A stretch of 64,000 nucleotides of DNA from Candidatus Binatia bacterium (GTDB taxonomy: Bacteria > Desulfobacterota > Binatia > UBA1149 > CAITLU01): contig JBLFWR010000004.1 in the NCBI GenBank assembly GCA_047611725.1, positions 10,496 to 74,495 on the forward strand, written 5' to 3'. Below, piece by piece: positions 3,184 to 42,721 of the stretch. The position numbers and the translations under genes were made by a program. Position 1 is the first letter of the stretch, and each line of letters opens with the position of its first letter. The notes beneath the pieces are model-generated. The model did not search any database and was not told the DNA's origin. It saw only the letters and a list, made by a program, of their open reading frames with translations.

Positions 3184-3236
3184 TTCCGCATGGATTTTCA
3201 CATGGTCACGCCCTTGGATGGCTGACCGGGGCTGCC

Positions 3237-4442
3237 TCAACGGGAAACGACGTTTGTGACTGCCAACACCGGTAGTGGCGAGACTTGCTCGGTCTCAGTG
3301 TCGGCGGCGTCCATGACTCGTACGTTGAAGCTGCCGGGACTCAAGCTTTCGTTGGTCCGGAATGCGCACGTGACCACCGGGCCAGTCTCAGGCATCCCGT
3401 CCAAGTCGATGATTCCGATCTTGGCGGAACGTCCAAGTTTGTTTGCGGCGCCCAGCATGCCCCCCAAGAACAGGCAGTCCAGCTTGGTTGCACCCTGCGA
3501 GACAAAGCCGCCACTATCGCCGAGGTGGTCGATTTCGAACTGAAGGGCGCCGAGTTCATTGCTGCCTTCGACGATGGAGACTGTGATCTCGTATTCCGGA
3601 AGGCCGGGGCTAAATCCTGGAGAGTCGTCGTAGTTGTCAGTGGCGGTTCCGGTTTCTGCCTGGCCGTCGTCGGCCGCCGCTGGTGCAGACGGGCCAGCCT
3701 TATTGCCCAACGGATTGTTGGCGGCGATGCGGTCGCGCACGCGTTGCGCCGATGTTGATGCCGGCTCCACGGGTGCGACCGGCGCGGCGGGCACGGCGGG
3801 TGGGGTGGCCTTCGGTACGCTGGCGGTCGGAGCCTTTGGAGCTGGAGCCGGTTTGGATGCGGGTGTCGGGGCGGGGCTAGGCGGCGGATTGCTGCCTGCC
3901 GGCTTCTTTCCATCCGGCGAAACCTTCTGCTTGTCCGAAACCGCCGCCGGTGGCGTCGGTTTTTTATCGGTCTCCACGGGGGCCGGAACTGGGAGGGGTT
4001 GGATTCTCGCTTGGCGTGGAGAGCGGGGGTCGAGTTCCTTCCCTTCTTCGTCTTGGGCCTTCACGATCCTGGCTTTCATTGCCTTCTGGATTGTAGTCGC
4101 GTTGGTCATCGGGTCTGCCGGGATCATGCGGCAGGCGGCGAGATCGATTGGGCCGGTAAAACCGCGGTTGGAACGCGCGCGCAAAGTTAGGCGTCCCACG
4201 CCGTCGTCGGTGAAATCTCCGCCTACGAAGGGGCTGATGAAAGCGCACTCAAGATCAGAACCATCTCGGGAGATCGTCGCTCCGGCCTGCGAGTAGTCAA
4301 CAAGAATCGTCGCGCTCGCCAGCCTTGCGGTGTCTTGAGACAGGGAAATCACTACCTCGACGGGGGGTGCGCCACTGTTTCCACACGATGCGAGGATCAG
4401 GCCCAGGCCGGAGACGGCCAGAATTCGAGTGAACTTTTTCAC
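3237..4442 (-). CDS. Lipoprotein with two copies of a two-Cys beta-module separated by a long Pro/Ala/Lys-rich linker
   Basis: ORF 3237..4487. Probable GTG start at 4442 (VKKFTRILAVSGLGLILAS|CGN, lipobox) preceded by a GGGGGA Shine-Dalgarno-like run. Module copies lie at about 4032-4364 and 3240-3590 (ALQFEIDH...LDC...GPVVTCAFR). The linker is PAPTPASKPAPAPKAP-like. Confidence 0.75.
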   Translation of the reverse strand: MKKFTRILAVSGLGLILASCGNSGAPPVEVVISLSQDTARLASATILVDYSQAGATISRDGSDLECAFISPFVGGDFTDDGVGRLTLRARSNRGFTGPIDLAACRMIPADPMTNATTIQKAMKARIVKAQDEEGKELDPRSPRQARIQPLPVPAPVETDKKPTPPAAVSDKQKVSPDGKKPAGSNPPPSPAPTPASKPAPAPKAPTASVPKATPPAVPAAPVAPVEPASTSAQRVRDRIAANNPLGNKAGPSAPAAADDGQAETGTATDNYDDSPGFSPGLPEYEITVSIVEGSNELGALQFEIDHLGDSGGFVSQGATKLDCLFLGGMLGAANKLGRSAKIGIIDLDGMPETGPVVTCAFRTNESLSPGSFNVRVMDAADTETEQVSPLPVLAVTNVVSR

Positions 4443-4483
4443 GGATCCCCCTGAAGGCGGACAGCTGTTGAAATCGCTGCCAA

Positions 4484-5050
4484 TCACGGCGCGGTAGTCG
4501 TTGTGGTTGTGGACGAAGAGGTTGTAGTGGTCGAAGGGGAGCCATCGTCAGGCGCGACCGTCGTCGATGTTGATGTTGATGTTGCGCTGGCCGCGCTGAC
4601 GGCGACGGTGATCGTCGCCGTTTCGTCTGCGCCATCTGCGTCCTGCGCGGTTACGGTGCCAATTGTGAAGTTGCCGGATGTCGGAGCCACGGACGATTCG
4701 AAGGTGCACACGGCGACTTCCTCGTCTGCGTCGATGAGCGTGTCTCCGGCAGAAACGGCAATTTCTAGGTCGTCCACGTCGTCATCAACAAAAGAACTCG
4801 TGCCAGTCGCGTTGCCACTGGTTGAACAGTCCACGTTCGATCCCGCTCCCGTAAAGTCGCCTCCACCCGTGTAGGTGACGCCAAAGGTCAGCTGGTCGAT
4901 AGGGTTGGTAGCCGTGGCGACGGTGAATGAAATCAGAAAAGTCTGAATGTCACCCTGGCTGGGGCCGCAGCTGGTGATTAAAGGAAGAAGCAGACTTGCG
5001 AGGGTGACCAGGCGAAGTCGCGTGGAGAAGGAGTGCCATTGACGATTCAT
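4484..5050 (-). CDS. Lipoprotein with one two-Cys module and a Ser/Thr-rich C-terminal tail
   Basis: 188-aa ORF with lipobox LPLITS|CG. The module (LTFGVTYTGGGDF...VDC...EEVAVCTFE) lies at about 4598-4951. The tail is STSTSTTVAPDDGSPSTTTTSSSTTTTTTAP. It overlaps the downstream ORF by 4 nt, which suggests an operon. Confidence 0.75.
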   Translation of the reverse strand: MNRQWHSFSTRLRLVTLASLLLPLITSCGPSQGDIQTFLISFTVATATNPIDQLTFGVTYTGGGDFTGAGSNVDCSTSGNATGTSSFVDDDVDDLEIAVSAGDTLIDADEEVAVCTFESSVAPTSGNFTIGTVTAQDADGADETATITVAVSAASATSTSTSTTVAPDDGSPSTTTTSSSTTTTTTAP

Positions 5051-5218: not shown

Positions 5219-7096
5219 CTACTCGGTCTGACAGTTCTCGTCGCAGCCGTCGTCTCCGACGAAGTTGCTGTCGTCGCAGGTTTCGTCGCAACCAATTTCG
5301 CCATCGCCGCAGCGACAGACCTGGATAAACGACTTCAGGCTGATGGCCCCGGGGCCGGTCAAGCCACCCGCGCTGTTAATGGTCGACGACGAGGTCGCCG
5401 GCACACAGAACAGAGCGGCCGTGGTCGGCCGTGAGCTGTCATCAACGCAGGTGTCGTCTCCGGCGCAATCGGCATCGCTTGTACAGGCGTTGGGATTGTC
5501 CGGATCGTTTGCGCAGTAGCTGCCCAACGGTGAGGGGACACCGTCTCGGGTGATCTCAGCCTCGAAGCAGGGCTTGAACTCGAACTGACACACGCCTGCA
5601 CTGTTGGCAGCACAGGTTGAATCGTCGTTGCAGGAGCGGAAGCTCTGCAGCGAGCAAGTGCCCACCAAGTTGTCCGGGCACAGCTCCTTGTCATCCAAGC
5701 CGCAGATGAATTTGAACCCTACACCGCATTCGTTCGGCTGAGACTGCGGAGCGTTGGCGCCCACCGATCCACTTCCAACCGTACAAGTACTGTCACCTGG
5801 ACAGGACTCGTCGTCGAAACACGGCAGCGTCGGATCGTCGTCGCAGAATCCACAGTGGCACCAGTGTCCACAGGTAATGGGCTGAATCGGAGCTGCTGCA
5901 CAGGCACCGCCGCCACAGTCACCGTTGGTGCTGCATACGGTGCGTGGGTCGTCGTCGCAGCGCAGGCAATCCGCGTTGGTGCTGCACGAGTCACCATTGT
6001 CAACGCAGGTCGCAGGTCCGTTCAGCGGGTTGTTGCCCAACAGGAAGTTCGAGCACGGTAGCTTCGCCGTCTTCGTCACTGTGCCCGTAGTCACGTTGTC
6101 GAAGATGATCGACAAGCCAGCACCGGAAATGTTGGCACCCAGAGTCGGGGGACAATCGAACGAAACACCACCGAAATCAGGACTGATCGAATCGATCGTG
6201 CAGTCGGCCCCTGGGAACTGTCCATCGTCGCAAGTGAAGGTGGCTCCGAGCTCTAGGTTCTGGCCCAGACGTCCGCAGCGAGGACAGGGCTGATCGACCG
6301 CGTCGCCCAAGAACACACGCGATTTCAGGTTTACGCCGACCTTGGAATCACCAGTCACCGCGTTGCTGGTGCCGGTGAATTCACTGTCGAAAATCGACAC
6401 TACGCAGACCGGGTTGCCGGCCGACGATAGCGGGAGCGGGGGGCCGAACATGAACTTACATGCCACGCCACTGGGGCAATCGCCGTCGGAATCGCAGGCT
6501 GCAAGCGTTGTTACACAGCGCTTCTGACCAACAGGTCCGGCGATCTCGCAGTCGGTGTCGCCACCTTCATTGCAATCGCAGGTCGGGTTGCAAAGTTCGC
6601 CGCTCGGGCAATCTTCGTCTTCGACGCAGATTTCATCCGAGATGCTACAGCGGCGCAGGGTGCGAATGAGCACCGAACCGCCTTCAATCACTTCGGCGTT
6701 GTGGGCGATGCCTGTCCAGCCGGAATCCAGATCGGATCCACTCAGGACAAAAAGTTCAGCTGAGGTGCACGCGGGGCCGCCGTCTACCGGTGGGCAGTCA
6801 CAATCGAGTGTCACCCCAACTTGGCCGACCGCGTAGCGAAGACACTGCAGGGCGTCACTGGCACGGACGTTGCCGTCGCCGCTGACATCGCAAATGCACT
6901 CCTCGTCGCTGTCTGGGAGGCAAGCCTGGGCGCCTACGGCGACCTTAAGGATGGCCAGGCAGTCGCTGGCTCTCGGGCCCTCGTTATTGGTTGACGGTTG
7001 GCTACAGTCGCCCTGAGCGGCCAAAGCTGCTGCGGGCAAGAAGATTGAGAGGACGAGCGCGCCAGCGGTAAACAGGCGCATTGCGGAATTTCGCAC
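5219..7096 (-). CDS. Secreted, extremely Cys-rich protein (paralogue 1) with an N-terminal dockerin-like repeat pair and a C-terminal Myxococcus-type Cys repeat
   Basis: 625-aa ORF with a GTG start 7-8 nt after AAGGAGGG. Signal peptide ...PAAALAAQ|GD. 60 Cys by my hand count. Dockerin-like CDVSGDGNVRASDALQCLRYAVG. Core motifs SGWTGIAHN, PPLPLSSAGNPVC, PCPRCG, NISGAGLSI and FCVPATSSSTINSAGGLTGPG are shared with the ORFs at 10374..13346 and 13661..15742. The C-terminus CGDGEIGCDETCDDSNFVGDDGCDENC resembles the Myxococcus cysteine-rich repeat. Confidence 0.85.
   Translation of the reverse strand: MRNSAMRLFTAGALVLSIFLPAAALAAQGDCSQPSTNNEGPRASDCLAILKVAVGAQACLPDSDEECICDVSGDGNVRASDALQCLRYAVGQVGVTLDCDCPPVDGGPACTSAELFVLSGSDLDSGWTGIAHNAEVIEGGSVLIRTLRRCSISDEICVEDEDCPSGELCNPTCDCNEGGDTDCEIAGPVGQKRCVTTLAACDSDGDCPSGVACKFMFGPPLPLSSAGNPVCVVSIFDSEFTGTSNAVTGDSKVGVNLKSRVFLGDAVDQPCPRCGRLGQNLELGATFTCDDGQFPGADCTIDSISPDFGGVSFDCPPTLGANISGAGLSIIFDNVTTGTVTKTAKLPCSNFLLGNNPLNGPATCVDNGDSCSTNADCLRCDDDPRTVCSTNGDCGGGACAAAPIQPITCGHWCHCGFCDDDPTLPCFDDESCPGDSTCTVGSGSVGANAPQSQPNECGVGFKFICGLDDKELCPDNLVGTCSLQSFRSCNDDSTCAANSAGVCQFEFKPCFEAEITRDGVPSPLGSYCANDPDNPNACTSDADCAGDDTCVDDSSRPTTAALFCVPATSSSTINSAGGLTGPGAISLKSFIQVCRCGDGEIGCDETCDDSNFVGDDGCDENCQTE
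6821..7009 (-). other. Dockerin-like EF-hand repeat pair (domain of the 625-aa protein)
   Basis: ASDCLAILKVAVG ... CDVSGDGNVRASDALQCLRYAVG. The second segment fits the D-x-[NSD]-x-D-G-x(5)-D-A-L-x-x-L-[KR] calcium-loop plus helix pattern of dockerin repeats. The first segment keeps only the helix. Confidence 0.6.
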
Positions 7097-7241
7097 GGGG
7101 GGATCCCTCCTTGGATTTCAGTTGGGTGATCATGGCCCTTTGGCCGAGCAGACGGAAGGCTAAAACTAAGGGGAGCCCTGCGAACAGGACTCCCCCTAGT
7201 TATAAAGTGCCGTAGGCGTCTAACCTGCGGCCGTTTTCTTG

Positions 7242-8765
7242 CTACAGCGGAACGACAGCTACGGTGACGTCAATGGTATTGAAGTCAAAGCCGTTACCGT
7301 CAGGATCGCCAGCGTCGTCGATTACAACCCCGAAATCACCCGCCGAGGGTGTTCCGTTGAAGCGGCAGCGCGCGATCTCGGTCGGTCCGTCAAACCCGAA
7401 CAGCGCGATGTAGCCGACGTTCAGCAGGCTGTCTCCGGTGATGTCGTTGAACACCGGTAAAACACTACCGCCGATCGAATCGGTACAATCCACATCACCG
7501 TCGATGTCGACAAAGGTGCCAGCCGCGCCACTGTAATCAACACCGAACTGCAAGGCCCCGAAGGTCAGGGCATTGCTGACGCTGAAGACGATCTCGGAAA
7601 CCGGGCCACTAGCTTCGGTGGTTGTGGTCGTGGAGCTCGTCGTCGTCGGAGCGACATTCGTGGTCGTCGTCGTTCCGCCATCAAGCGTGGTGGTCGTCGG
7701 CTCCAACGTGGTGCTGGTAGTCCCAACCACATTGATTTGGCTCGGGATAACCGACGGGGTGAATCCGAACTCATTGCCGTCCGGGTCCGTTGCGTCGGTG
7801 ATCGTGATGTCGAAGTCGTCGGCAACCGGGCAGATAGCCCCGTTGAACGTGCATTCGACGATGTCGGCAGGACCTTGGATCCCGGCGATGCTGATCACGC
7901 CTACGGTCAGGATCTGCAGGCTTTCTTTGTCGTTGGCTGACGGAACCGATTGGCTTACTAGGAAAGCGCATTCAACGTCTGCTCCCATTCCGGCGAAGCC
8001 GCCCGGTGCATCTGCATAGTCGATATCGAACTGCAGAGAACCGAAGAGAGCGGCGTCTTCGACGCGAAAGACAACGTTGCACTGAACTGCCGGGGGCAGT
8101 GTCACGCTGGTTGTCGTCGACGAAGACGTTGTCGTGGTCGGAGGGATGGTGGTCGTAACTGGCGGCAACGTGGTCGTCGTGTCGGAGACCGTCGTCGTCG
8201 TCGAAGTCGTGGTGCTGTTGAAGTTGCAAGGTGCAACGTTCTCACAGACCGGATCTTCACAATCGGTCAGACCATTGCCGTCGTCATCCACGTCGTTGTC
8301 GCAATTTTCGCAAGACAAGGGGTTTGGATCGCGATCGATGCACAGCGGAGGCGTTTCGTCACAGCCAGCAACGGAACACTCGCAAATCGCGGTGGTGGCC
8401 GCTTCGAGGGCGTCGATGTTGAGGCCGCTGTCGAACACGCAGCTAAACAGTGCCGAGATCTCATCGATGGTGCAGCTGTCGATAGTCACGGTCAGCAGAT
8501 TGCCGTCCAGATCGATGTCGGATTGGCAGCCGTCGAGTGAGCTCGCCAAGTCGCAATTGGCGGCGCCGAGATCGTCGGTGTCAATGCTGGCGCCAGCGGC
8601 GTCCAGATCAACAGTCACGACTACACGGCCACAATCGCCGTCACCGACGATGCCGAAGAAAATTCTAATTAGTCCGCTACCACCGCCATCGTCACAACCG
8701 CCAACGGCAAAGCCGAGCGAGAGGACAAGGGCGCCAAGACCTAGCTTGCGCATCCAACCTTTCAT
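7242..8765 (-). CDS. Lipoprotein with a Cys-rich N-terminal region, Thr-rich linkers and two two-Cys modules
   Basis: 507-aa ORF with ATG 7 nt after AAGGAG and lipobox LGFAVGG|CDD. The N-terminal region includes CENCDNDVDDDGNGLTDCEDPVC. Linkers are STTTSTTTTVSDTTTTLPPVTTTIPPTTTTSSSTTTS and similar. Modules lie at about 7725-8087 (GSLQFDIDYADAPGGF...VEC...IVECTFNG) and 7245-7604 (GALQFGVDYSGAAGTF...VDC...IARCRFNG). Confidence 0.85.
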   Translation of the reverse strand: MKGWMRKLGLGALVLSLGFAVGGCDDGGGSGLIRIFFGIVGDGDCGRVVVTVDLDAAGASIDTDDLGAANCDLASSLDGCQSDIDLDGNLLTVTIDSCTIDEISALFSCVFDSGLNIDALEAATTAICECSVAGCDETPPLCIDRDPNPLSCENCDNDVDDDGNGLTDCEDPVCENVAPCNFNSTTTSTTTTVSDTTTTLPPVTTTIPPTTTTSSSTTTSVTLPPAVQCNVVFRVEDAALFGSLQFDIDYADAPGGFAGMGADVECAFLVSQSVPSANDKESLQILTVGVISIAGIQGPADIVECTFNGAICPVADDFDITITDATDPDGNEFGFTPSVIPSQINVVGTTSTTLEPTTTTLDGGTTTTTNVAPTTTSSTTTTTEASGPVSEIVFSVSNALTFGALQFGVDYSGAAGTFVDIDGDVDCTDSIGGSVLPVFNDITGDSLLNVGYIALFGFDGPTEIARCRFNGTPSAGDFGVVIDDAGDPDGNGFDFNTIDVTVAVVPL

Positions 8766-9085
8766 CAGTTAACTCCTTATCTACCTAATTCGACTATTTC
8801 GACTTTGTGCGGATTGGCTTTGCCGACTCACTAGAGCCGGGACCAAACTCTCCAAAAACTGGAGTATTCGCGGGATATTAGAACCAAGGTTTAGCCGTGA
8901 GCTTAGGCGATTGTCAAGCAGGGGTAAGCTGCCCGGCAAGATCACGCGGGTCTGGGCCTTCAGTTGCGTTGAGGGCTTTTTCGGAGCTATACGCGATGAA
9001 CGGTGGCAGGAATACCTGTGCTGCCGGATCTGTATCGGGCGCCGGCAGAATTGAGCGCCCCATTTCCCAGAGTCCAGGAGGACCC

Positions 9086-10210
9086 ATGCAACCGACCGAG
9101 TCGTTGATTGCGGCCAGCCGCAGCCGTAGCCCATTGCGAATCGCAACCGTCGCGACCGCGATAACACTAGCTTTTGCCCCAGCGCAGGCCCCGGCCTTTT
9201 TCCAATCGACCTCGCTTGAGGGCGGTATCGGCCACGATATCAGTGGTGTTTGGCTGGCGATGCATCATGTTTTGCCGGAATTTCGAATCCGCTTCGAAAA
9301 GCCCCAAGATACTGAAATTCCTTCGGAATATGTCCCCTTCAAGGTTGGCCCGGTGCCTGCCGATCTCTCCAAAGCTTTAGGCCCCGGGGCGGCCGGGGTT
9401 GCGGTCACCGAAATCACCGACAGCGCCTTGGCCAATCGCTATGGGATCTATCCCGGAGATGTGATCCGCAAGATTGGCAGCTACAGCGTTAGGGACGTGG
9501 ATAGTTGGCAAGAGGGCCTTGAGAACGCCCCCAAGGTGATTCTGCTCACGGTACGTCGCCCGAGCCTGAAACAGTCGAAGGGGCGGCTATTCAAGCTCAC
9601 GTATGAGGCGAGCAGCGCCACGGAACAGGTGGGCGACGGAAGTGAAACCGTGGTTGCTGAGGAGACCTTCAAAGTCGAAGTTCTCGATGTTGCACTGCCC
9701 GGTGACGCGGTTGCTGAAGAACAGCGCAAGAAGTCGGAGTTCTGGGAGCCTTCGGCGGCCGACATTGAGGCGCTGCGGGCCGAGTGGTTCAAGTTGTCGA
9801 TGGTCAAACCTCTTCGGTTTTTACGGGGCGATACCCGGGTTGTCGCGTCGTCTCACTACGGTGCGGATCTCGCCGGTGACTCCAATACGAAAGACACGCT
9901 TTTCGCGATGGTGCTCAAACTGGAGGCGAATCCCGTCGGCGCGGGCGGGGGGCAGTTGGTCGATATTTACGGTATCCGAGAGATCAACGGCGCAGAGATC
10001 GCAGGTACTTACGTAACCGCGCTCATCGCGCGGGCACCGTTCCCGATCAGTGTTGAGTTCAAAGGAAATTTCACGATGACCCGGCTTGATGATCTTTCTG
10101 ATCGCGATGTTGCTTGGCGGAAGGAAAATTCCAAGAATGCTGCCGACCGGGAAGCGGAAGATCTAGACAAGTTCGAGCTGGCCCCGGATATTCCGACCGA
10201 CCTGCAGTAA
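9086..10210 (+). CDS. Secreted PDZ-domain protein, function unknown
   Basis: ORF 8897..10210. The internal ATG at 9086 follows CAGGAGGA and gives a signal-like N-terminus (LRIATVATAITLAFAPAQA). PDZ-like segment GIYPGDVIRKIGSYSVRDVDSWQEGLENAPKVILLTVRR. Confidence 0.65.
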   Translation: MQPTESLIAASRSRSPLRIATVATAITLAFAPAQAPAFFQSTSLEGGIGHDISGVWLAMHHVLPEFRIRFEKPQDTEIPSEYVPFKVGPVPADLSKALGPGAAGVAVTEITDSALANRYGIYPGDVIRKIGSYSVRDVDSWQEGLENAPKVILLTVRRPSLKQSKGRLFKLTYEASSATEQVGDGSETVVAEETFKVEVLDVALPGDAVAEEQRKKSEFWEPSAADIEALRAEWFKLSMVKPLRFLRGDTRVVASSHYGADLAGDSNTKDTLFAMVLKLEANPVGAGGGQLVDIYGIREINGAEIAGTYVTALIARAPFPISVEFKGNFTMTRLDDLSDRDVAWRKENSKNAADREAEDLDKFELAPDIPTDLQ

Positions 10211-10247
10211 CGACGTTGAATCCCGTGAGGCCTTGAGCTTCACGCAG

Positions 10248-10286
10248 AAGGGCCCGCACCAATCATATTGGTGCGGGCCCTTTTCG
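10248..10286 (+). terminator. Rho-independent terminator after the PDZ gene
   Basis: 13-bp perfect stem aagggcccgcacc / ggtgcgggccctt with a 9-nt loop, followed by ttttcgtt. Confidence 0.75.
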
Positions 10287-10303
10287 TTATTGCCGATAGA
10301 GCG

Positions 10304-10368
10304 ACGTGTCGTCCCGGTGGGCAGGGTTAGGTCGCAACTTGCGACCCCCTTCCGCCGGGACGACACGT
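10304..10368 (-). terminator. Nested (hairpin-within-hairpin) structure immediately after the stop of the 990-aa gene
   Basis: The outer 14-bp perfect arms acgtgtcgtcccgg (10304-10317) and ccgggacgacacgt (10355-10368) enclose an inner 7-bp hairpin ggtcgca-act-tgcgacc (10330-10346). The structure starts 6 nt after the TAG at 10374-10376. No clear U-tract. Confidence 0.45.
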
Positions 10369-10373
10369 ATCAG

Positions 10374-13346
10374 CTATGGTAGCGACGGAACGTTCAGGAC
10401 CGACGTTCCTCCTTGGCGCAACCGACCCATTCCAGGCAAGCCCGCTGTTGAGTTCACTGCTACCGACGTTGTCGCCGGTACGCAGTAGTTCGCAACGGTG
10501 AAGAAGTTAGTCGGATCTGCGTTACCGTTAAGCGTATCTCCACCCTCAACCTGATGGTCTGGCAGGTAGCACAAAGCGACATCAGCCACGCAGATACCGG
10601 CGCCGGGAACGATCTCGTCGCAGTTCTGGGTCGTGTTTTCGTCTTCGGGCTGGCACGGGAGCGACTCAAACTCTCCGCTACAGTGGAATGTCTTGCCAGC
10701 GCCACACACCCCGGCGTCAGGATCTACCACGTCGCAGGGGAATCCAGCGCAGTCGAAGGTGTCACCACAGACCAGGCCATCTTGGCTGCCGCCGTTACAC
10801 TGTCCAGAAGGTAGGCAAAGCGGAACACACCGACCGCTCGGACAAGCGTCGCCACAGACGCCGTCGCCAGGGGTGACAAGGGTGTCGCAATCGGCGTTAA
10901 CCGAACAGCTGTTGAGGCTCTTTTCGGGATCGCCCGCTGTGCAATGCACTGGGGTATCCGTACAGGTGCCTCCAGGGCAATCGCTGTCCTCGTCGCAGGC
11001 AGCGGTGCTGTTACTACAGGTCGTAAAAATCCCACTCCCGGTGTTGCCTGTCACACAGCCCTGGCCGAGTTCCGCGCCAGCATTGCATGAGGCGTTACAC
11101 TTGTTTGGCTTGGTCCGTATTGAGCCAGTACCCAGGACACAGTTGCAGTCAAAGTTCTCGAAACCTTGAGCATCGCAGGCACCAGGGAAGGGCAGTGCTA
11201 CTAGCTCGCTAGTTGTCGGTTGAAATAGGATCTGCAAGCCAGCTCCGGAAATGTTTTTCCCGACCAAGGGCTGACAGTCTACCGAAGTGGTCCCGAAATT
11301 AGTGAATGCCTCGACCCGACACGTGTCTCCTGCATCGATTCCCTGAGCGCAAATCAAGTCAAGCTGACAAGGCCCTCCAGCGCAGCTCGGAGTCGCTGTG
11401 CTGCAGACTTCTTCTGGCCCTGGGCAATCCGAGTCGAAACGACAATCGAGTCCCCAACATTCCCCGCCATCGGTACAATCGCCATTGGCTGTGCAGATAG
11501 TGCCGTCGTTGCTGCCAAAACGGCACTCAAGGGTGTCGCCACAGGTTCCTTCACACCGTTCCTCGTTGCGGTCGCCACCAAGACAGTACCCGCCGCATGT
11601 CGGACAAGGACTTGTCTGCGTGGTGCCGAGGAAAACCTTGGCTCGCAGTTCGTAGTTGATTATGTGCTCACCCGTAACGTGGTTGGCGGTGCCCTCCACG
11701 TCGGAGAAATACTCATTTCTCACGCAAGTCTGGGTTCCACTCGAGGACAGAGGAAGCGGCGCGCCGTTGGTGAGGACCACGCACATTGCCGCGCTGTTAC
11801 AGCGCCCCCGGCACACTTCACTCTCGGCACAATCCGACTGTCTGACGCACGGCCCGGTTGGCGATCCGCCAGTATCGTAGCACTGGGCGTTGCAGTCCGA
11901 CTCGCCGGTACACGACGCTCCGGCATTAGTGGTGAAGGCGTCGCACTGGGCGCAGTCGGCGTCTTCATGCTTGCCATCTACATCACCGAAAGCATCGCAG
12001 CTGGGATCACCAAGATCGAGTCCCCAGTCACAACGCGGCTCTGTTTGCGCGAACACGGTGCAAATCGGGTCGGTTGAAACGCCGATACATGTTGCCGTGT
12101 CGATAGCGTCGAACTCGGTACAGTCACAATTAGTGACCGCGGTGATAAACCCAGCTCGGTCCGGGACACCGGCGTTGTGAGCCAAGCCGGTCCAGCCGCT
12201 GTCAAGCTTTGCTGCAAATCCATCAACAAACCGACGCGCGCGCGGAATATCTCCGCAGGTGCACTCGAACGCATCGCCCGGAGGCAAGCAGTTCCCAACG
12301 CAGGCCGAGTCTTCGGTCCCATCACATTCCTCGCCGATCAGCGCGAACTGGTTTCGAACCGGATTCACGCGATTGTCGCCGCAAAAAGACTTGACGCTAA
12401 GCGGGTAGGCCGCGTTGATGATACTCGTGGGGAGGAATTCCGTTTCCCCGGGGCCTTCGGTCGTTGACCCGGCCTCCATAGCTACGTCTGATAGACATGC
12501 CTGCGCCGCCTCGACCGTCGTGACTCCGCCGACGCCTAGTCCGCATAGATCAAGTACTGTCAGTGTTTCCACGGTGCACTTCTTAGGAATGGCGTCGACG
12601 AGCTTCTGGATCGCTTTCGCTACTTTCTCAGAAGTCTTTTGGTCTGCGACCTGGCAGTTGGTGGTCGTCACCGTAACCGGCTCTCCTGGAACTAGGGCCG
12701 TACGGTTGACCTTGTCTCGACACTTGGCGACGGTTTTGCCGATCGAAGCGGCAGTTTTGCCAACGGTTAAACCCAGAGCGAACATACACTTCTCGGCTTC
12801 TTTGGTGAGCCCGCTTTCGGAGTCGATGCTGCCAGCCACGTTGGCAAGGATCGACTCGGCGATTTGCTCGGCGGCATCAGACACACAATTCCCGATGTCG
12901 GCGGCGTCGGTGATCTCTCCGCAGAGTGACCCCGGGAATCCAATTTTTGAGGCATTCATTGGCTTGGCTTTAGCCCCTGCAGTGCAGATTTCGGGGCTCG
13001 AGCCGTTGGGTGGGCAGGCTTGGCTGTCGATACAGAGCAAACCTGAAACGGAGCAAGTGCTGACGCACTTTTTCCCAGCGAGCTTGACCGCTTTTGCCCG
13101 GGCCTTTGTGATTTTCAACGACGCTTTGGCGTCAGGGCACGACGCAGCCGGATTGGAGAGAAGGCACTTGACGCCATCTTTCGCCGCGTTTTGAACTAGC
13201 TTGGCGGCGCTTTTTGCCATGATGCCAGTACACTTGGCTTCAATCTGGCTGAATGCCTGAGCGTGGGCGTTGCCTGGGGCAACTAGCGCAAACGCCAAGG
13301 CTGTGAGAACCGCCATTGATGTGGCGGCGGTGTGAAAACGTTTCAT
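10374..13346 (-). CDS. Secreted, extremely Cys-rich protein (paralogue 2) with an N-terminal helical Cys-ladder domain
   Basis: 990-aa ORF with ATG shortly after GGAGGAG and signal peptide ...LVAPGNAHAQ|A. The first ~300 aa are Lys/Ala-rich with spaced Cys. Then come an FCGDN...EECDG Myxococcus-repeat-like segment and the shared core motifs DSGWTGLAHN, GAPLPLSSSGTQTC, SPCPTCGG, NISGAGLQI and YCVPATTSVAVNSTAGLPG. Confidence 0.85.
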   Translation of the reverse strand: MKRFHTAATSMAVLTALAFALVAPGNAHAQAFSQIEAKCTGIMAKSAAKLVQNAAKDGVKCLLSNPAASCPDAKASLKITKARAKAVKLAGKKCVSTCSVSGLLCIDSQACPPNGSSPEICTAGAKAKPMNASKIGFPGSLCGEITDAADIGNCVSDAAEQIAESILANVAGSIDSESGLTKEAEKCMFALGLTVGKTAASIGKTVAKCRDKVNRTALVPGEPVTVTTTNCQVADQKTSEKVAKAIQKLVDAIPKKCTVETLTVLDLCGLGVGGVTTVEAAQACLSDVAMEAGSTTEGPGETEFLPTSIINAAYPLSVKSFCGDNRVNPVRNQFALIGEECDGTEDSACVGNCLPPGDAFECTCGDIPRARRFVDGFAAKLDSGWTGLAHNAGVPDRAGFITAVTNCDCTEFDAIDTATCIGVSTDPICTVFAQTEPRCDWGLDLGDPSCDAFGDVDGKHEDADCAQCDAFTTNAGASCTGESDCNAQCYDTGGSPTGPCVRQSDCAESEVCRGRCNSAAMCVVLTNGAPLPLSSSGTQTCVRNEYFSDVEGTANHVTGEHIINYELRAKVFLGTTQTSPCPTCGGYCLGGDRNEERCEGTCGDTLECRFGSNDGTICTANGDCTDGGECWGLDCRFDSDCPGPEEVCSTATPSCAGGPCQLDLICAQGIDAGDTCRVEAFTNFGTTSVDCQPLVGKNISGAGLQILFQPTTSELVALPFPGACDAQGFENFDCNCVLGTGSIRTKPNKCNASCNAGAELGQGCVTGNTGSGIFTTCSNSTAACDEDSDCPGGTCTDTPVHCTAGDPEKSLNSCSVNADCDTLVTPGDGVCGDACPSGRCVPLCLPSGQCNGGSQDGLVCGDTFDCAGFPCDVVDPDAGVCGAGKTFHCSGEFESLPCQPEDENTTQNCDEIVPGAGICVADVALCYLPDHQVEGGDTLNGNADPTNFFTVANYCVPATTSVAVNSTAGLPGMGRLRQGGTSVLNVPSLP

Positions 13347-13410
13347 AATTAGGTTCTCCTCCTAGAGATCAGGGCGCGCAGCGCGAAAGCCCCAAAACCG
13401 ATTTGCAATG

Positions 13411-13431
13411 CCAGCCCTAACTTAGGGCTGG
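13411..13431. promoter_or_regulatory. Perfect 10-bp palindrome upstream of the 990-aa gene (operator or 5-prime-UTR hairpin candidate)
   Basis: ccagccctaa-c-ttagggctgg lies 65-85 nt upstream of the start codon at 13346, inside a 314-bp non-coding gap. Confidence 0.25.
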
Positions 13432-13575
13432 ACTCAGAAGTCTTTGACTGGTCGTCTCCCGCTTTCTCGTCAAGGCACGCCCAAGACACGCCCGACAGCG
13501 ACCCTATACCTAAAGACCCGGACAGGGCCATGTCAAGGTCGAAAGATAGGAACACTGCCTGGCTTGCCTAAATGA

Positions 13576-13610
13576 AGAAGGCCCCCGACGCGATGCGCCG
13601 AGGGCCTTCA
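13576..13610 (-). terminator. Terminator candidate after the 702-aa gene
   Basis: Hairpin gaaggccc...gggccttc (8-bp outer stem with extra internal pairing). On the minus strand ttcattt follows. It lies about 50 nt downstream of the stop at 13661. Confidence 0.5.
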
Positions 13611-13660
13611 GTGGTTCGGTTGGAGTCCGAGGCCGACAAAGCCGGCTTCAGGCTACGTTG

Positions 13661-15742
13661 TTAAAACAACTTTTCGGTTAACATGTCGATGCGAATGGCT
13701 GCTGGACCAGGTGTGCCAGCAGCGAGGTTCACGCCGCCATTGTTGGTCGGGGGCACGCAGAACGTTCCAACGACAATCGGGTTGTCCACGTCCGGTGTGC
13801 CTGAGAGCAGAATTGGATCCAGGAAGCAGGTCCGGGTCTCGATAACCGTACACTCTCCGCAATCGTTGCCCGGACAAACATCACCGGCTCCGCCCTCGAA
13901 AGTCTCGCAGTCTGCGGTGGTGATGCACGCGAGCACGCCTCCTCCGTTGGCACGAGTCAGACCGTCACAGAACTTGTCGAACGGGCCTGCACCGGAGCAT
14001 GAGCCTCGATCAGTCTGGGAGATGTCGTCGTTACACACGGTGTCTCCACACTGGTTGGGAACACGGTCGGCGGCTGCTCCGCCACCGTTCGAGGTGCAGG
14101 TCGTACCGCCGACAGCGACGCATTCGGCGTCGGAGTTACAGGGCTGGGACAATGCCCCAACGCACTGTCCGCAAGCGCAGTCCAGTGTGTTGAGCGCGCC
14201 GTCACACTTCACATCGAAACCGAGTGAGGTGCTGCCGGTGGTCAGCTCAAGGTTGATGACCAAGCCTGTGCCGCTGATGTTTTCAGTGGCTGAGGAGGGA
14301 CAGTCCAAGCTGACATCGCCGAAGCTCGCATCCAGAGCATGGACGTCGCACGGTTGGCCATCTTGCGCACCGCCCGTGCAGGTTCCGTCGCGATTGCCGT
14401 CCTGAGCGGTGGTGTCCCCTTCACAAATCGGACAAGGCTGCTGTTGCACCTCGCCAGTGTGAACCTTCGACAACAGGTTGATGTTGAGTATGCCGGTGCC
14501 GTTGTCCGGATCCGAGGTGCCGGTGATATCTTCACGGAGGCGGTTCTGGGAGCAAGTAAACGTCCCGCCAGCCGAGATGGCCAAAGGTCCGCCGAGGTAG
14601 TAGCCGCATTCCCCGCCAGATGGGCAGGCAGGATCGTTTCCAAACGGGTTGGTACACTCGATCGATGTATCTTGCGCGCAACGTGCGAAGTTCGAATACT
14701 GGTCGCTTCGTGTGCTTAGACCGTCGATCGTACACGAACCGCAGCTGCCCTCGCCCAGTCCCGGGCAAGTGATGTCGGCAGCAATTTCGTAGTCATCCGG
14801 CAAGTCGAGGTTGTGGGCAACTCCCGTCCAGCCAACGTTGAGCACCGTACCGGTGGCTCCGGCTGAGCCTTGCCCAGCGCGGATGGTAGAAACGATCCCG
14901 TTTGGACAGGGGCTGTCGCCGTAGCCGGTTGCGTAAGCGAGATCTTTGGCTGCCAGGAATTCAGCTGCCGCACAAGTCTGGAGGCTGGCGATGTCGGCGC
15001 CGCACACTCCCAGTGTGACCAAATCGGCTGGGGCTCCGCAGAACTTGGTGATGAACCCGTCAGCCTTTTCCAGGGACTTCGCTGCTTTGCCTTTCAGGTC
15101 CACGCCACTGCACAGGGCAATGTCGTTCTCGCCGAGCTTCTTGTCGTTGTCCTTCTGGCACTTCTGTTGGTTCTTCAGGAAGTCGTCGAGATATTTCTGG
15201 TAACCCTTCTGAACGAATTTGGCGCACTTCTGGCTGTCCTTGTCGTCCGTGAAGCTGGCAGGGTCCGGAAGGCCGAGGGCTGCGGCGGAGGCGGTCTCCA
15301 CGGCATTCAAGACTTCGCAGGTCAGGCAGTCGGCGATTTCTTGGTCGTCGGCCAAGGGCGTGCTCAAGCTTTCCGACGTGATGCATTCGGCCGAACAAGT
15401 GAAGAATCGGTCTACCACTGATTGAGCCTTCTCAGCGGGGCAATTCTTGTCGAGTGCCGTTACGATTTTTTCGGTGCCCTTGCCAATCTTGCCTTTGCCA
15501 GCATCGGCTACGATGGTGTCATAACAGTCGTCGGTGGCTTCCCGCTTGCCGGCCAGACGGTCTGCGTAGCACTTGCCAATGGCCTTGCCGGCGGTCTTCA
15601 CCATTTTGCCGACTTCTTTGGCCAGGGCGCCTCGGCACTTTTGTTCATCTTTATTGAACTGGGCTTGTGCCAGTGTGGGCGTGAGAGAGAGGGCGAAGGC
15701 AAAAGCCATTGCCCCTCCGAGAATTCTCGAGCGGTTATTCAT
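13661..15742 (-). CDS. Secreted, extremely Cys-rich protein (paralogue 3) with an N-terminal helical Cys-ladder domain
   Basis: ORF 13661..15769. The ATG at 15742 follows GGAGGAG and gives MNNRSRILGGAMAFAFALSLTPTLAQAQ|F. The N-terminal ~250 aa are homologous to the N-terminus of the 990-aa protein. Core motifs are NVGWTGVAHN, GGPLAISAGGTFTC, QPCPICEG, NISGTGLVI and FCVPPTNNGGVNLAAGTPGP. Confidence 0.85.
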   Translation of the reverse strand: MNNRSRILGGAMAFAFALSLTPTLAQAQFNKDEQKCRGALAKEVGKMVKTAGKAIGKCYADRLAGKREATDDCYDTIVADAGKGKIGKGTEKIVTALDKNCPAEKAQSVVDRFFTCSAECITSESLSTPLADDQEIADCLTCEVLNAVETASAAALGLPDPASFTDDKDSQKCAKFVQKGYQKYLDDFLKNQQKCQKDNDKKLGENDIALCSGVDLKGKAAKSLEKADGFITKFCGAPADLVTLGVCGADIASLQTCAAAEFLAAKDLAYATGYGDSPCPNGIVSTIRAGQGSAGATGTVLNVGWTGVAHNLDLPDDYEIAADITCPGLGEGSCGSCTIDGLSTRSDQYSNFARCAQDTSIECTNPFGNDPACPSGGECGYYLGGPLAISAGGTFTCSQNRLREDITGTSDPDNGTGILNINLLSKVHTGEVQQQPCPICEGDTTAQDGNRDGTCTGGAQDGQPCDVHALDASFGDVSLDCPSSATENISGTGLVINLELTTGSTSLGFDVKCDGALNTLDCACGQCVGALSQPCNSDAECVAVGGTTCTSNGGGAAADRVPNQCGDTVCNDDISQTDRGSCSGAGPFDKFCDGLTRANGGGVLACITTADCETFEGGAGDVCPGNDCGECTVIETRTCFLDPILLSGTPDVDNPIVVGTFCVPPTNNGGVNLAAGTPGPAAIRIDMLTEKLF

Positions 15743-16005
15743 AAATCTCCTCCGGTTATTTCGATACAAATTGGCGGCGAATGTATTTATACGTCTCGCA
15801 CCGTGTTGGGGCGGAGATTAAGATTGCGTCCGTAGCGGTGTCAAGGGAAGTTCTAGGATAACCTAAGCAATAAGCGTTCAACTCGGAGTTTAGGAAGCTC
15901 GCTCGGCAGTCGAAATGTACGATGACGCAGCGAGCCGTTGAGCGGTTTTCCGCGCTGCCAGACCAAGCCGTCGCGAAAGCGATTCCCCACAGGAGACTGA
16001 TTCGA

Positions 16006-16386
16006 ATGAAGAAAACCACTATTTCGTTAGCCCTGCTCGTCGCCACGACCGTCGTCGTGAGCGTGTCCGTTGCTGAAGCCGGTCTGACCTGTCGCAAGGT
16101 TGTTGCCAAAGAGGCAACGGGTGAAGGCCGCAACGCCCTAAAAGGGTCGCGTGTAAAGTGTGGCGAAGGCGAATTCCTGACTGGAGGTGCCTGTTATCCT
16201 GAGGTTCGTCCCGAAGAAGACGGCAGTTGCCAAACCTCGGCGATGGGAATCATCCAAACCTTAGTCGATTATCCCGGCACCACCGAGGCTGCATTTTTCA
16301 CTTGCATGCAGACCGGAGGAACGGATTGTCCGGTCGATGAGCGCACTCGAGCCATGGCGATTTGCTGCAGAATCGTCGACGAATAG
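16006..16386 (+). CDS. Small secreted Cys-rich protein, unknown function
   Basis: ORF 15922..16386. The internal ATG at 16006 follows AGGAGA and gives the signal peptide MKKTTISLALLVATTVVVSVSVAEA. The mature part has 8 Cys. It is divergent from the 702-aa gene. Confidence 0.6.
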   Translation: MKKTTISLALLVATTVVVSVSVAEAGLTCRKVVAKEATGEGRNALKGSRVKCGEGEFLTGGACYPEVRPEEDGSCQTSAMGIIQTLVDYPGTTEAAFFTCMQTGGTDCPVDERTRAMAICCRIVDE

Positions 16387-16486: not shown

Positions 16487-18454
16487 CTAGAACTGCCAGG
16501 TTGCCTGGAAGCTCGTTTCTGAGCGTCCGCGGCTTCCACCGCCGAGGAACCAAGGCTCGAACAATTCCCCACCGTCGATGTCAGAGTCGTTCTTGTGTCC
16601 CTGGTATGGATCCCAGGGATAACCTACCCAGATCAAGCGTGTGGTGATGTTCAACGCGACATTCGGCGTGATGAACCAATCTACACCGATCGCCACCTCC
16701 TGCGAGTAGCTGTTCACCGGATCCATAATGTAAATGAAGGCCGGAACTAGCGTCCCACCCTTGTAGAAACCGATGGCCGCGAAGGTCGTCAGGATTTCCC
16801 ACTGGTGAATGGTGTCGCGCCCTTTGCCGTTGGGTGAATCGAGCTTGGGTAGATCGAGTCCGCCGATCAAGCCCGTTTGCTCGCCGGGGAGCAAGAAGTT
16901 CCCGTTGTCGTCACCACAGTTCTCACCCGGATCGTTCGTGTAGCCGTTGGCCGGGTCGTCTCCGATGGCACAGCGTCGGCGCTCGTGCTCGATGATGTAG
17001 TGCCAGAACATCTGGCCGGAAAGGAAGAAGGTGGTCTTCTTGTTCAGCCACTTGATCCAAGTCGGACGATCGAAGGCGATCATACCCTTCCACATGTTTT
17101 TCGAAGTGATTCCGGGAAGCAGGATCGGGCCGTTGTCAGGACGATTGAACAGCGCGTTCTGCTTGTCACCATCGTAGAAGGGCAGGTCGAAATCGATCAC
17201 CGACTCAACGCGCCAAACCGTTTGCGTGTACACCCCCTCGAACCAATTGAACGAGAAGCCGACGGTGTGGACGTAAGGGGTGAAGTACTCGGCGCACAGC
17301 TCACCTGCGGCCCACGGCACTGCTGCGGCAACACCTGGGTCGTTCGGGTCCAAAGCCCGCCCTTCGCACCATTGCTGCGCGTTGAACGTGCGCTCGCTCC
17401 CGTTATCGAAGGTGACGTCGAAGGTCTGGTTTTGCGGGACACCTCGGACGAACGCGATCGGAGATCCGTCAGGAGAGAACCGCTGGTAGAGATAGTTGAT
17501 CGTCCACTCGGTCGAACCCGCCAAGAAGTGGAACCGAATTCCAAACTGACTGTTGTCGGCAATGTTCTTTGCGTAGTTGCCTTGATTCAGGAACTGGGTG
17601 CCGTTGAGCAGGCCGCTACAGGTGCCGTCTTTGGCGTTGCGGCAGAACGAACTCTGGAATGCACCGGAGCCTTTGGAATTTTCCAGAGGGTTAAGAATCT
17701 TGGCTCCCCAGGGGCGCGGCAGGAAGCCGACCTTGCCTGGGTTCCAGTCAAAACCGGGATTCCAGTAGGCCTCAATAAAGGTCTGCGAGAGCGGACCAAC
17801 CTTCTTCAGGTCGTATAGCCCCTTGACCATGAAGAAGGGCTGACGAATTTCATCGAATCCGAACCCGGGCGGCGGCAGCTCTTGGAAAAAGTGCCAAGAA
17901 AGATCGAGCGTGTTTGCACGGTCGAGCATGCGGAAGCCGTCGGTCTCGCCCCAAACAATCTGCTGCTTACCAATGCGCAAGGTCAGCGGAATGTGCTTGA
18001 AGTACAAATCGATGTACGCCTCGCGAATATTATTGTTGAACTTGAACGAGTCCCGCTCGTCCGCAGACAGCGAATCAAGCGAGACGTCTTGAGGGGTCAA
18101 CGGGTCGCCCTGGAAATCTTTACGCTCAAGCTGGCCCGGCCTCGTGTCGTAGATGCTGTCGTACATGCCGCGGTACAGCATGTAGATGTCGGAGCGCTTC
18201 AGGAAGGGAACGTTGTACTTCCCGAAAGCCTTGCCCCGTTGCAGCCACTTGTACTCCAGGCGCAGCTTCAGCGTGTTGCGCTGCATAATGAACGCCAAGT
18301 TGTCGATATCCTGATGGCGGATAACGTTCGTAGTGCGAATGTGTCCGCCGATATCGAGGCCGTTTGCGCGGTATAGCGCGTCAGCCGGCATCGGTGCCGC
18401 GATAACCAGACTGAGCGCGAGCGCGAGCCCGAGCGTCCAGGAGACTGCTTTCAT
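16487..18454 (-). CDS. Outer-membrane beta-barrel protein, DUF1302-like
   Basis: 655-aa ORF with signal peptide ...VIAAPMPADA. Rich in Tyr/Trp/Gly/Asn with alternating beta-strand character. The C-terminus ...SFQATWQF ends in Phe (OMP signature). The N-terminal GGHIRTTNVIRHQD...LKLRLEYKW resembles DUF1302; this family call is from memory and was not searched. Confidence 0.65.
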   Translation of the reverse strand: MKAVSWTLGLALALSLVIAAPMPADALYRANGLDIGGHIRTTNVIRHQDIDNLAFIMQRNTLKLRLEYKWLQRGKAFGKYNVPFLKRSDIYMLYRGMYDSIYDTRPGQLERKDFQGDPLTPQDVSLDSLSADERDSFKFNNNIREAYIDLYFKHIPLTLRIGKQQIVWGETDGFRMLDRANTLDLSWHFFQELPPPGFGFDEIRQPFFMVKGLYDLKKVGPLSQTFIEAYWNPGFDWNPGKVGFLPRPWGAKILNPLENSKGSGAFQSSFCRNAKDGTCSGLLNGTQFLNQGNYAKNIADNSQFGIRFHFLAGSTEWTINYLYQRFSPDGSPIAFVRGVPQNQTFDVTFDNGSERTFNAQQWCEGRALDPNDPGVAAAVPWAAGELCAEYFTPYVHTVGFSFNWFEGVYTQTVWRVESVIDFDLPFYDGDKQNALFNRPDNGPILLPGITSKNMWKGMIAFDRPTWIKWLNKKTTFFLSGQMFWHYIIEHERRRCAIGDDPANGYTNDPGENCGDDNGNFLLPGEQTGLIGGLDLPKLDSPNGKGRDTIHQWEILTTFAAIGFYKGGTLVPAFIYIMDPVNSYSQEVAIGVDWFITPNVALNITTRLIWVGYPWDPYQGHKNDSDIDGGELFEPWFLGGGSRGRSETSFQATWQF

Positions 18455-42661: not shown

Positions 42662-42721
42662 TTCGCTCCGGCAGCGTTTTTCCGTCTAAAATCGCGTTTG
42701 CCAACAGGAGGCCGCGCGTTC

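Follow-up and report, generated by a model that had tools for sequence, protein, structure and literature searches.

Three neighbouring genes in a 64-kb stretch of DNA from an uncultured Candidatus Binatia bacterium (this whole stretch is called the window below) encode secreted, Cys-rich products of 625, 990 and 702 amino acids (aa; Table 1). The three proteins have a domain in common that we named the GWTG core after its first conserved island and which, by sequence criteria, is a real and undescribed domain family. With a confidence that we place at about even, we read the three proteins as cargo or subunits, stapled by disulfides, of an envelope assembly of the cohesin-dockerin type, in which the core would have a binding or structural role. 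An earlier note on this DNA had described the three proteins and their islands; absent from it were a dockerin-like module in the 625-aa protein, an N-terminal domain (HelN) shared by the other two, and the conservation of the locus.

The three proteins are homologous and share a discontinuous core

Each of the three proteins has a signal-peptide-like N-terminus. Their Cys totals are all even, at a Cys content of 6.6-9.6%, and the 60 Cys that the earlier note had counted by hand in the smallest paralogue agree exactly with the computed number. Pairwise BLASTP with composition correction yielded E-values of 2e-18 (625 v 990), 3e-22 (625 v 702) and 9e-12 (990 v 702), indicating that the similarity reflects homology and not Cys-rich composition, in agreement with the earlier view of the proteins as paralogues. 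The term 'giant', also applied to them in the note, overstates their size. Orthologues of the 625-aa protein share 44-71% identity with it and are unnamed without exception.

The core comprises 400-610 aa and is strongly acidic, with an isoelectric point of about 4 and a net charge of -37 to -59 (-44 for the core of the 625-aa protein). Its five islands were defined by the expressions [DN]-[SV]-G-W-T-G-x-A-H-N (island 1), G-x-P-L-x-[LI]-S-[SA]-x-G-x-x-x-C (island 2), T-G-x(6,9)-L-x-[SA]-[RK]-V-[FH]-[LT]-G-x(5,6)-P-C-P-x-C (island 3), [FV]-[GD]-x-[VT]-S-x-D-C-x-[PS]-x(4,5)-N-I-S-G-x-G-L-x-I (island 4) and [FY]-C-V-P-x-T-x(5,6)-N-x-x-A-G-x-P-G (island 5, C-terminal). These expressions, taken from the earlier note, recover 13 of the 15 island instances in the three proteins, and the remaining two deviate by a single residue or spacing: the 625-aa protein has FCVPATSSSTINSAGGLTGPG as its island 5, and in the 702-aa protein island 3 opens with NG instead of TG.

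A three-way alignment showed the islands to be collinear in all three paralogues. The gaps measure 84, 136 and 72 aa between islands 1 and 2 (in the 625-, 990- and 702-aa proteins, respectively), 33, 99 and 33 aa between islands 3 and 4, and 232, 247 and 164 aa between islands 4 and 5. Order and spacing were kept in 92 homologues, as the proposal of a discontinuous core with a constant island order had anticipated. Among these homologues the islands are nearly fixed in length (island 1, 10 aa; island 2, 13-14 aa; island 3, 26-30 aa; island 4, 21-28 aa; island 5, 21 aa), as opposed to gaps that vary two- to three-fold (1-2, 72-164 aa; 3-4, 32-104 aa; 4-5, 157-306 aa). The spacer between islands 2 and 3 has a median length of 16 aa (range 16-27). 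All five islands are present, but the conserved elements outnumber them; an example is C-[FY]-x(3,4)-I-x(3)-G-x-P, on the N-terminal side of island 5.

The largest Cys-rich insertions of the three paralogues are those of the 990-aa protein. The mini-motif C-x(2,4)-[DN]-x-[DE]-C-x(3,7)-C, with which the variable insertions were said to be packed, occurs in eight copies in the three proteins against a mean of 0.30 in shuffles of the same sequences, and at least eight copies were reached in 0 of 2000 shuffles. The enrichment and the variability of the gaps thus stand, but some copies belong to the conserved framework and not to variable insertions: the mini-motif formed by C201, C207 and C213 is 91-98% conserved. 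Overall, a comparison of 170 full cores shows ~23 Cys positions with a conservation of at least 85%. The number of Cys in the gap between islands 3 and 4 was 2, 6, 10 or 14 and never odd among the 92 homologues, with gains in multiples of four. Correlations of Cys gain and loss across cores, in which we sought disulfide partners, were dominated by subfamily structure.

Predicted fold of the core and search for known relatives

The AlphaFold2 model of the whole 625-aa chain, based on an alignment of 92 sequences, had a mean predicted local distance difference test score (pLDDT) of 92.3 and a predicted template modeling score (pTM) of 0.84. It shows one compact, beta-rich body with a strand content of 50-64% in islands 1-3 and about 30% in islands 4 and 5. 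In each of the four copies of the mini-motif in this model, a short helix over the acidic residues is followed by a terminal strand, and two of the copies also start with a strand. In the chains P0111, P0204 and P0089 the core is present twice in full, and comparison of core quarters with each other by hhalign detected no significant internal duplication beyond the mini-motif (best probability 35%). The five islands are thus parts of a single mobile domain. Both the model and the tandem-core proteins fit the suggestion in the earlier note of one beta body.

The core matched no family in Pfam or NCBIfam at E<=0.1, the three proteins had no match in PADLOC or PHROGs, and the 92-sequence profile found 0 matches among PDB sequences at E<=1. 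The absence of a confident profile match in any of these collections bears out the statement that the islands correspond to no named domain. Foldseek comparison of the 625-aa model with PDB and BFVD gave 0 matches at E<=0.001, and template modeling (TM) scores over the core were all <0.2; the dockerin-like module was the sole part of the model to be matched. Note that matches to outer-membrane beta-barrels were also returned; these were rejected as noise (TM <0.2, probability 0.01). Set against PDB and BFVD, the core may provisionally be regarded as a new fold.

Size and distribution of the family

A profile of the three proteins detected 152 proteins in a word-indexed database, nearly all unnamed and, where a label is given, from metagenome-assembled genomes (MAGs) of Candidatus Binatia, 'Limnocylindrales', Deltaproteobacteria or Dadabacteria. 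Exhaustive hmmsearch with a core-only profile yielded 966 clusters (50% identity) at E<=1e-3, 594 at E<=1e-10 and 138 at E<=1e-30; those at E<=1e-10 all stem from MAGs with the labels Binatia, Myxococcales or 'delta proteobacterium'. A scan of one genome per species with the 3-sequence alignment found 28 loci, all in MAGs, some of which give several loci. These are labelled Binatia, Myxococcales/Polyangiaceae, 'delta proteobacterium' and Thermodesulfobacteriota, with single contigs labelled Opitutaceae, Acidimicrobiales and Nitrosopumilus. Core genes usually lie in tandem arrays. In the literature searched, we found no paper that describes the GWTG core family or links Binatia (Binatota) with dockerins, and none of relevance on DUF4215 or on Cys-rich Binatia proteins.

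Since the window has a G+C content of 57-64%, it contains many long spurious open reading frames, and one could suppose that the similarity is a chance product of such frames or of Cys-rich, low-complexity sequence. The hundreds of homologues with conserved islands, E-values down to 3e-22, a model with a pLDDT of 92 and the synteny described below refute this explanation, whose probability we regard as negligible.

Probable disulfide bonds and the adjoining oxidoreductase genes

The signal peptides, the evenness and conservation of the Cys, the lack of metal-cluster motifs and the persistent linkage to Dsb genes together indicate disulfide-stapled exported proteins, and we consider disulfide formation by the Cys a well-supported reading. 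The last gene of the conserved block encodes a VKOR-DsbA fusion, which matched the Pfam families VKOR (E 2e-22, 80.3 bits, cut-off 27.5), Thioredoxin_4 (E 2e-13, 51.3 bits, cut-off 23.2) and DSBA (E 2e-9, 38.3 bits, cut-off 25.6). VKOR-thioredoxin/DsbA fusions replace DsbB-DsbA in many bacteria. The present fusion would likewise supply disulfides to exported proteins; it differs in lying within a conserved locus of exceptionally Cys-rich substrates, and this conservation suggests a dedicated or at least co-regulated role. At the loci L011, L012, L015 and L016 of distant MAGs (about 7-10 kb into each), a lipoprotein with a CPFC thioredoxin domain (DsbA-fold), lacking the VKOR part, adjoins the cores. 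Judged by eye, its N-terminal part may be DsbC/G-like.

The high Cys content and a single CX3CH in the 625-aa protein would also be compatible with Cys that serve mainly as metal or redox ligands (metallothionein-like, Fe-S or haem-binding). However, CX3CH is missing from the 990- and 702-aa proteins, and neither CxxCH nor CxxCxxC occurs in any of the three. The export signals, the conserved Dsb oxidoreductase genes nearby, the even Cys totals and the gain of Cys in fours between islands 3 and 4 likewise speak for disulfides, as does the model, whose beta fold is confident and well packed, unlike a metal-cluster peptide. Thus, we judge a ligand role of the Cys to be very improbable.

A dockerin-like module beside cohesin-like lipoproteins

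The 625-aa protein carries a dockerin-like module ahead of its core. In isolation, residues 28-105 matched Pfam Dockerin_1 (PF00404) at E 2.5e-5 (24.8 bits, above the cut-off of 22.9), and 10 of 28 orthologues matched the same family. A profile of the module found a Clostridium thermocellum dockerin in PDB (1ohz_B, E 2.2e-4), and the HMMER alignment spans both repeats. By fold, the module resembled the dockerins 4uyq_B, 4uyp_B and 4fl4 (chains G and A) with Foldseek probabilities of 0.93-0.99, target TM scores of 0.65-0.72 and root-mean-square deviations of 2.9-3.6 Å; the E-values of these matches are merely 0.13-0.5 because the module is short. The second dockerin segment, DVSGDGNVRASDALQCL, is canonical. 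In the first, with the consensus SxGxxPxAxDCLxIL, the helix and the final Asp are preserved but the D-x-[DN]-x-[DN] loop is incomplete.

The 990- and 702-aa proteins have in common a Lys/Ala-rich, Cys-paired N-terminal domain of 260-330 aa, HelN. The two copies were linked by jackhmmer, and HelN had no match in Pfam or PDB, a PDB search with HelN alone giving noise. Among 262 family members sampled, 104 contain the dockerin-like module, which is N-terminal in 91 of these, and HelN is present in 85, with no protein having both. At the C-terminus of the 625-aa protein, a Cys-rich repeat matched DUF4215 (PF13948) at E 0.005 and 17.6 bits, under the cut-off of 27. Several orthologues carry PF13948, and the tail of the 625-aa protein is thus probably a degenerate copy.

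Three lipoproteins encoded in the same locus as the 625-aa protein contain five or six cohesin-like modules in total. AlphaFold2 modeled the 507-aa lipoprotein (pLDDT 82) with modules at residues 30-145, 225-348 and 388-507 and disordered linkers; two of the modules are clearly cohesin-like and one is divergent. Cohesins dominated the top 50 PDB matches of this model in Foldseek, including the dyad 3l8q (E 1.5e-5, probability 1.0), 2xdh (TM 0.55), and 3kcp_B, 2y3n_A and 5k39_A (probability 0.99-1.0). Profile hidden Markov models (HMMs) built from orthologues of the 507-aa protein alone detected further modules in the 188- and 416-aa lipoproteins (Table 1).

The genes are arranged in the order 702 - 990 - PDZ-like (opposite strand) - 507 - 625 - 188 - 416 - TPR - VKOR/DsbA, and seven further genomes of Binatia type keep this order, at 34-70% identity. 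Start/stop overlaps of 4 bp at positions 3237-3240 and 4484-4487 join the genes for the 188-, 416- and 617-aa proteins, which suggests translational coupling within the block. Given the dockerin-like module, the flanking cohesin-like lipoproteins and the conserved, partly overlapping genes, the most economical hypothesis is that the 625-aa protein would dock onto a lipoprotein scaffold. The resulting assembly would be located in the envelope or on the cell surface.

A series of points weighs against this proposal. Dockerin_1 was not reported when the whole protein was scanned, and a 102-aa N-terminal fragment reached only E 0.042; the module has a degenerate first repeat and is itself Cys-stapled. 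The Pfam cohesin family (PF00963) matched none of the 507-, 416- and 188-aa lipoproteins at E<=0.1, so that the cohesin assignment is one of fold only. No route across the outer membrane was identified. The family members come entirely from uncultured MAGs, and the fold comparison covered PDB and BFVD. In addition, only one of the three paralogues, the 625-aa protein, has a dockerin-like module. This last point would also fit free-standing secreted or periplasmic adhesins, matrix or coat proteins or toxins, with lipoproteins that are merely co-located and a dockerin-like module that acts as a Ca2+-binding stabilizer. Many family loci in other genomes consist simply of cores in tandem, and no homologue of the 507-aa lipoprotein could be detected there; moreover, non-cellulosomal dockerin-like modules often have no known partner. 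Against mere co-location, the 507-aa gene is followed by the 625-aa gene in 8 genomes, down to 34-57% identity, and genes of the block overlap. Moreover, the window holds more cohesin- and dockerin-like modules, including one protein with both, which argues for a working interaction network. We consider the free-standing alternative rather unlikely.

The further modules are as follows. A 572-aa protein with 22 Cys (51799-53517, minus strand) has three cohesin-like modules at residues ~54-169, 204-325 and 468-574, together with a dockerin-like module at residues 400-462 (E 3.6e-15) and a DUF4215 repeat; this architecture, similar to that of an adaptor scaffoldin, suggests a wider cohesin-dockerin network in the organism. 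Immediately behind a ROK-family gene, a small open frame at 42662-43198 (plus strand) codes for one cohesin-like module (module HMM E 6e-29). A 450-aa protein (18896-20248, minus strand) begins with a two-segment dockerin-like N-terminus (Dockerin_1 E 0.0055, family HMM E 5e-7), and its remaining 350 aa had no Pfam match. Residues 153-180 of the 507-aa lipoprotein (8226-8309, minus strand) form the motif CENCDNDVDDDGNGLTDCEDPVCENVAPC, which matches the NCBIfam 'acidic double-disulfide repeat' at E 6.5e-5 (below cut-off) and, in a profile search, the teneurin-4 C-rich region (7plp_A) at E 6.7e-4.

Possible role of the core

Besides Cys, Gly and Pro, the residues conserved best across the 170 cores are S312 (99%), T243 (94%), F308 (93%) and D314 (88%), followed by H132 (84%), D124 (83%), N574 (82%) and W127 (80%). 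S312, H132 and either D314 or D124 could represent a Ser/Asp/His catalytic set, a further point against a binding or structural role; the core would then be an enzyme and the catalytic cargo of a cellulosome-like complex. Indeed, the dockerin-bearing subunits of classical cohesin-dockerin systems are mostly enzymes. However, no catalytic family (hydrolase, lyase or other) was matched by sequence or fold, and the surroundings of S312, F-G-G-x-S-x-D-C-P, correspond to no known nucleophile elbow. The conserved Ser, Thr, Asp and Asn would be equally compatible with tight turns or a Ca2+ site in an extracellular domain of acidic character. The domains accompanying the core in 42 diverse members were DUF4215 (10 of 42), disintegrin, DUF7450, the proprotein-convertase P-domain and dockerin, with no catalytic domain among them. 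We therefore regard an enzymatic core as unlikely. Rather, a binding or structural role is favoured by the acidity of the core, by its variable surface loops and by the absence of catalytic domains among its partners, and the core may bind a ligand.

The preferred reading, a cohesin-dockerin-type assembly with disulfide-stapled cargo, could operate as follows. The three genes would give rise to Sec-exported paralogues of an acidic, beta-rich domain, whose islands would form a beta framework held by the conserved set of disulfides. The inserted loops, largely C-x-x-[DN]-x-[DE]-C-x(n)-C mini-modules, would provide each paralogue with a different surface. The co-encoded VKOR-DsbA protein would oxidize the proteins in the periplasm, and the 625-aa paralogue would then be held by its dockerin-like module on cohesin-like modules of the 507-, 188- and 416-aa lipoproteins. 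The 990- and 702-aa paralogues, with HelN, would join the assembly in some other way. The core would most likely bind something or have a structural role, catalysis being less likely.

A bolder version of this proposal can be put forward only tentatively, as we doubt it more than we believe it. In it, the core would have a new fold, and three anciently diverged types of paralogue (625-, 990- and 702-like), the Cys-free PDZ-like protein and a dedicated Dsb oxidoreductase would constitute a previously unknown hetero-oligomeric machine of the envelope or surface, conserved from Binatia to 'delta proteobacterium' MAGs. In Binatia, this machine would be mounted on a lipoprotein cohesin-dockerin scaffold, the first to be described in the lineage and one without carbohydrate-active enzymes.

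Other features of the locus and the window

The coordinates of the features are collected in Table 1. Since the window also encodes RpoD, ProS and Dxr, it is chromosomal.

Table 1. Features of the Cys-rich protein locus, with positions counted from the first letter of the window.
Feature	Residues	Position	Strand	Remarks
625-aa protein gene		5219-7096	minus	signal peptide, dockerin-like module, GWTG core, DUF4215-like Cys-rich tail; 60 Cys
Dockerin-like module of 625-aa protein	28-105	6782-7015	minus	Dockerin_1, PDB profile, Foldseek
GWTG core of 625-aa protein	105-596	5309-6784	minus	core HMM E 4e-219
Islands 1-5 of 625-aa protein		6698-6727, 6404-6445, 6275-6355, 6107-6175, 5348-5410	minus	
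C-terminal DUF4215-like Cys-rich repeat of 625-aa protein	592-623	5228-5323	minus	PF13948, sub-threshold
990-aa protein gene		10374-13346	minus	signal peptide, HelN (residues ~26-298), GWTG core; 84 Cys
GWTG core of 990-aa protein	363-975	10422-12260	minus	core HMM E 3e-191
702-aa protein gene		13661-15769	minus	signal peptide, HelN, GWTG core; 46 Cys
HelN of 702-aa protein	31-291	14897-15679	minus	
GWTG core of 702-aa protein	292-695	13685-14896	minus	core HMM E 1e-148
507-aa lipoprotein		7242-8765	minus	three beta modules, Thr-rich linkers; directly upstream of 625-aa gene
188-aa lipoprotein		4484-5050	minus	one cohesin-like module, Ser/Thr-rich tail; module HMMs E 2e-13 to 2e-18
416-aa lipoprotein		3237-4487	minus	two cohesin-like modules, Pro-rich linker; module HMM E 1e-10 to 1e-17
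617-aa protein		1387-3240	minus	hydrophobic N-terminal half, C-terminal TPR repeats; syntenic, 41-56% identity
VKOR-DsbA fusion, disulfide-forming oxidoreductase		54-1256	minus	last gene of conserved block; syntenic, 44-67% identity
437-aa Cys-free PDZ-like protein		8897-10210	plus	hydrophobic N-terminal stretch, weak PDZ match

The 437-aa protein matched PDZ_6 at E 3e-4, below cut-off, and gave weak matches to PDZ structures in PDB. Its N-terminal stretch is a probable signal peptide, and its true start probably lies further downstream. A PDZ-like protein is encoded beside cores at the loci L001-L007, L011, L012, L015, L016 and L020, distant genomes included. The distant 'delta proteobacterium' MAGs (25-33% identity) combine a 990-like core, the PDZ-like protein, the DsbA-fold lipoprotein and two to four more cores.

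The N-terminal 400 aa of the 617-aa protein had no Pfam match even at E 0.5, and its PDB matches are to the TPR part alone. We had considered a TMTC/PMT-like O-glycosyltransferase acting on the Thr-rich linkers; with no supporting match in these 400 aa, this candidate was dropped. About 10 kb from the cluster (23607-27267, plus strand), a second TPR protein (661 aa) is followed by a PMT/PMT_2-type glycosyltransferase (564 aa), an arrangement that may bear on glycosylation of the Thr-rich linkers.

A strong terminator-like hairpin (13609-13577, minus strand; 15-bp stem with 11 G-C pairs) lies 52 nt past the stop codon of the 702-aa gene, suggesting that this gene ends its own transcription unit. 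On the other side of the 702-aa gene, an open reading frame of 154 aa with 9 Cys (15922-16386, plus strand) precedes the gene for a DUF1302 outer-membrane protein (16487-18454, minus strand), which adjoins the cluster. The 154-aa frame matched no family; at 75% identity in two other genomes, it exceeds its neighbours in conservation. The same DUF1302 adjacency is found at L003/L004 (78% identity), L006 keeps just the 154-aa frame at its left end, and the DUF1302 gene was not seen in the distant loci.

Relation to known systems and significance

Cohesin-dockerin assemblies (cellulosomes, amylosomes and non-cellulosomal systems) have their counterparts in the present locus in a cargo protein with a dockerin-like module and in cell-anchored scaffold proteins of tandem cohesin-like modules joined by Thr/Pro-rich linkers, and the 572-aa protein with both module types is reminiscent of an adaptor scaffoldin. 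In contrast, the host here belongs to an uncultured Binatia-type lineage instead of the Gram-positive cellulolytic bacteria, lipoproteins take the place of SLH- or sortase-anchored proteins as putative scaffolds, and the cargo, whose binding is predicted, is a Cys-rich domain instead of a carbohydrate-active enzyme. Likewise, the stapled dockerin-like module with its degenerate first repeat and the unmatched Pfam cohesin model set the locus apart.

Proteins with DUF4215 are also secreted, Cys-rich and found in the same kinds of MAGs, and DUF4215 follows the core in the 10 members mentioned above. However, DUF4215 is a 47-aa repeat, whereas the GWTG core is a single domain of 400-610 aa without a match to it. 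The small acidic disulfide modules of extracellular proteins of eukaryotes (disintegrin PF00200, the teneurin C-rich region and Dictyostelium CTDC repeats) share the short, disulfide-clamped Asp/Asn-rich loops, and in some homologues the core is followed on its C-terminal side by true disintegrin domains. Unlike these modules, which are arranged as beads on a string, the mini-modules are inserted in a larger beta domain, and the three window proteins gave no profile match to them. The system is thus best seen as a variation on cohesin-dockerin assemblies and on Dsb-folded Cys-rich secreted proteins, with a domain family that is itself undescribed.

In the collections searched, Binatia and related uncultured lineages are represented by metagenome assemblies only, and their envelope proteins are mostly labelled 'hypothetical'. 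The GWTG core adds about 600 clusters (50% identity) of a nameless, well-conserved domain that has no detectable relative among solved structures, and its confident model makes it a ready target for structural and binding studies. Exported Cys-rich proteins conserved beside a VKOR-DsbA or DsbA-fold gene provide a naturally occurring model for the question of how proteins with 20-40 disulfides are folded in bacteria. The locus points to a cohesin-dockerin network outside the cellulolytic Firmicutes, in which the scaffolds would be lipoproteins and the cargo would be rich in disulfides and non-enzymatic. Should the docking prove real, cohesin-dockerin systems would have a wider range of uses.

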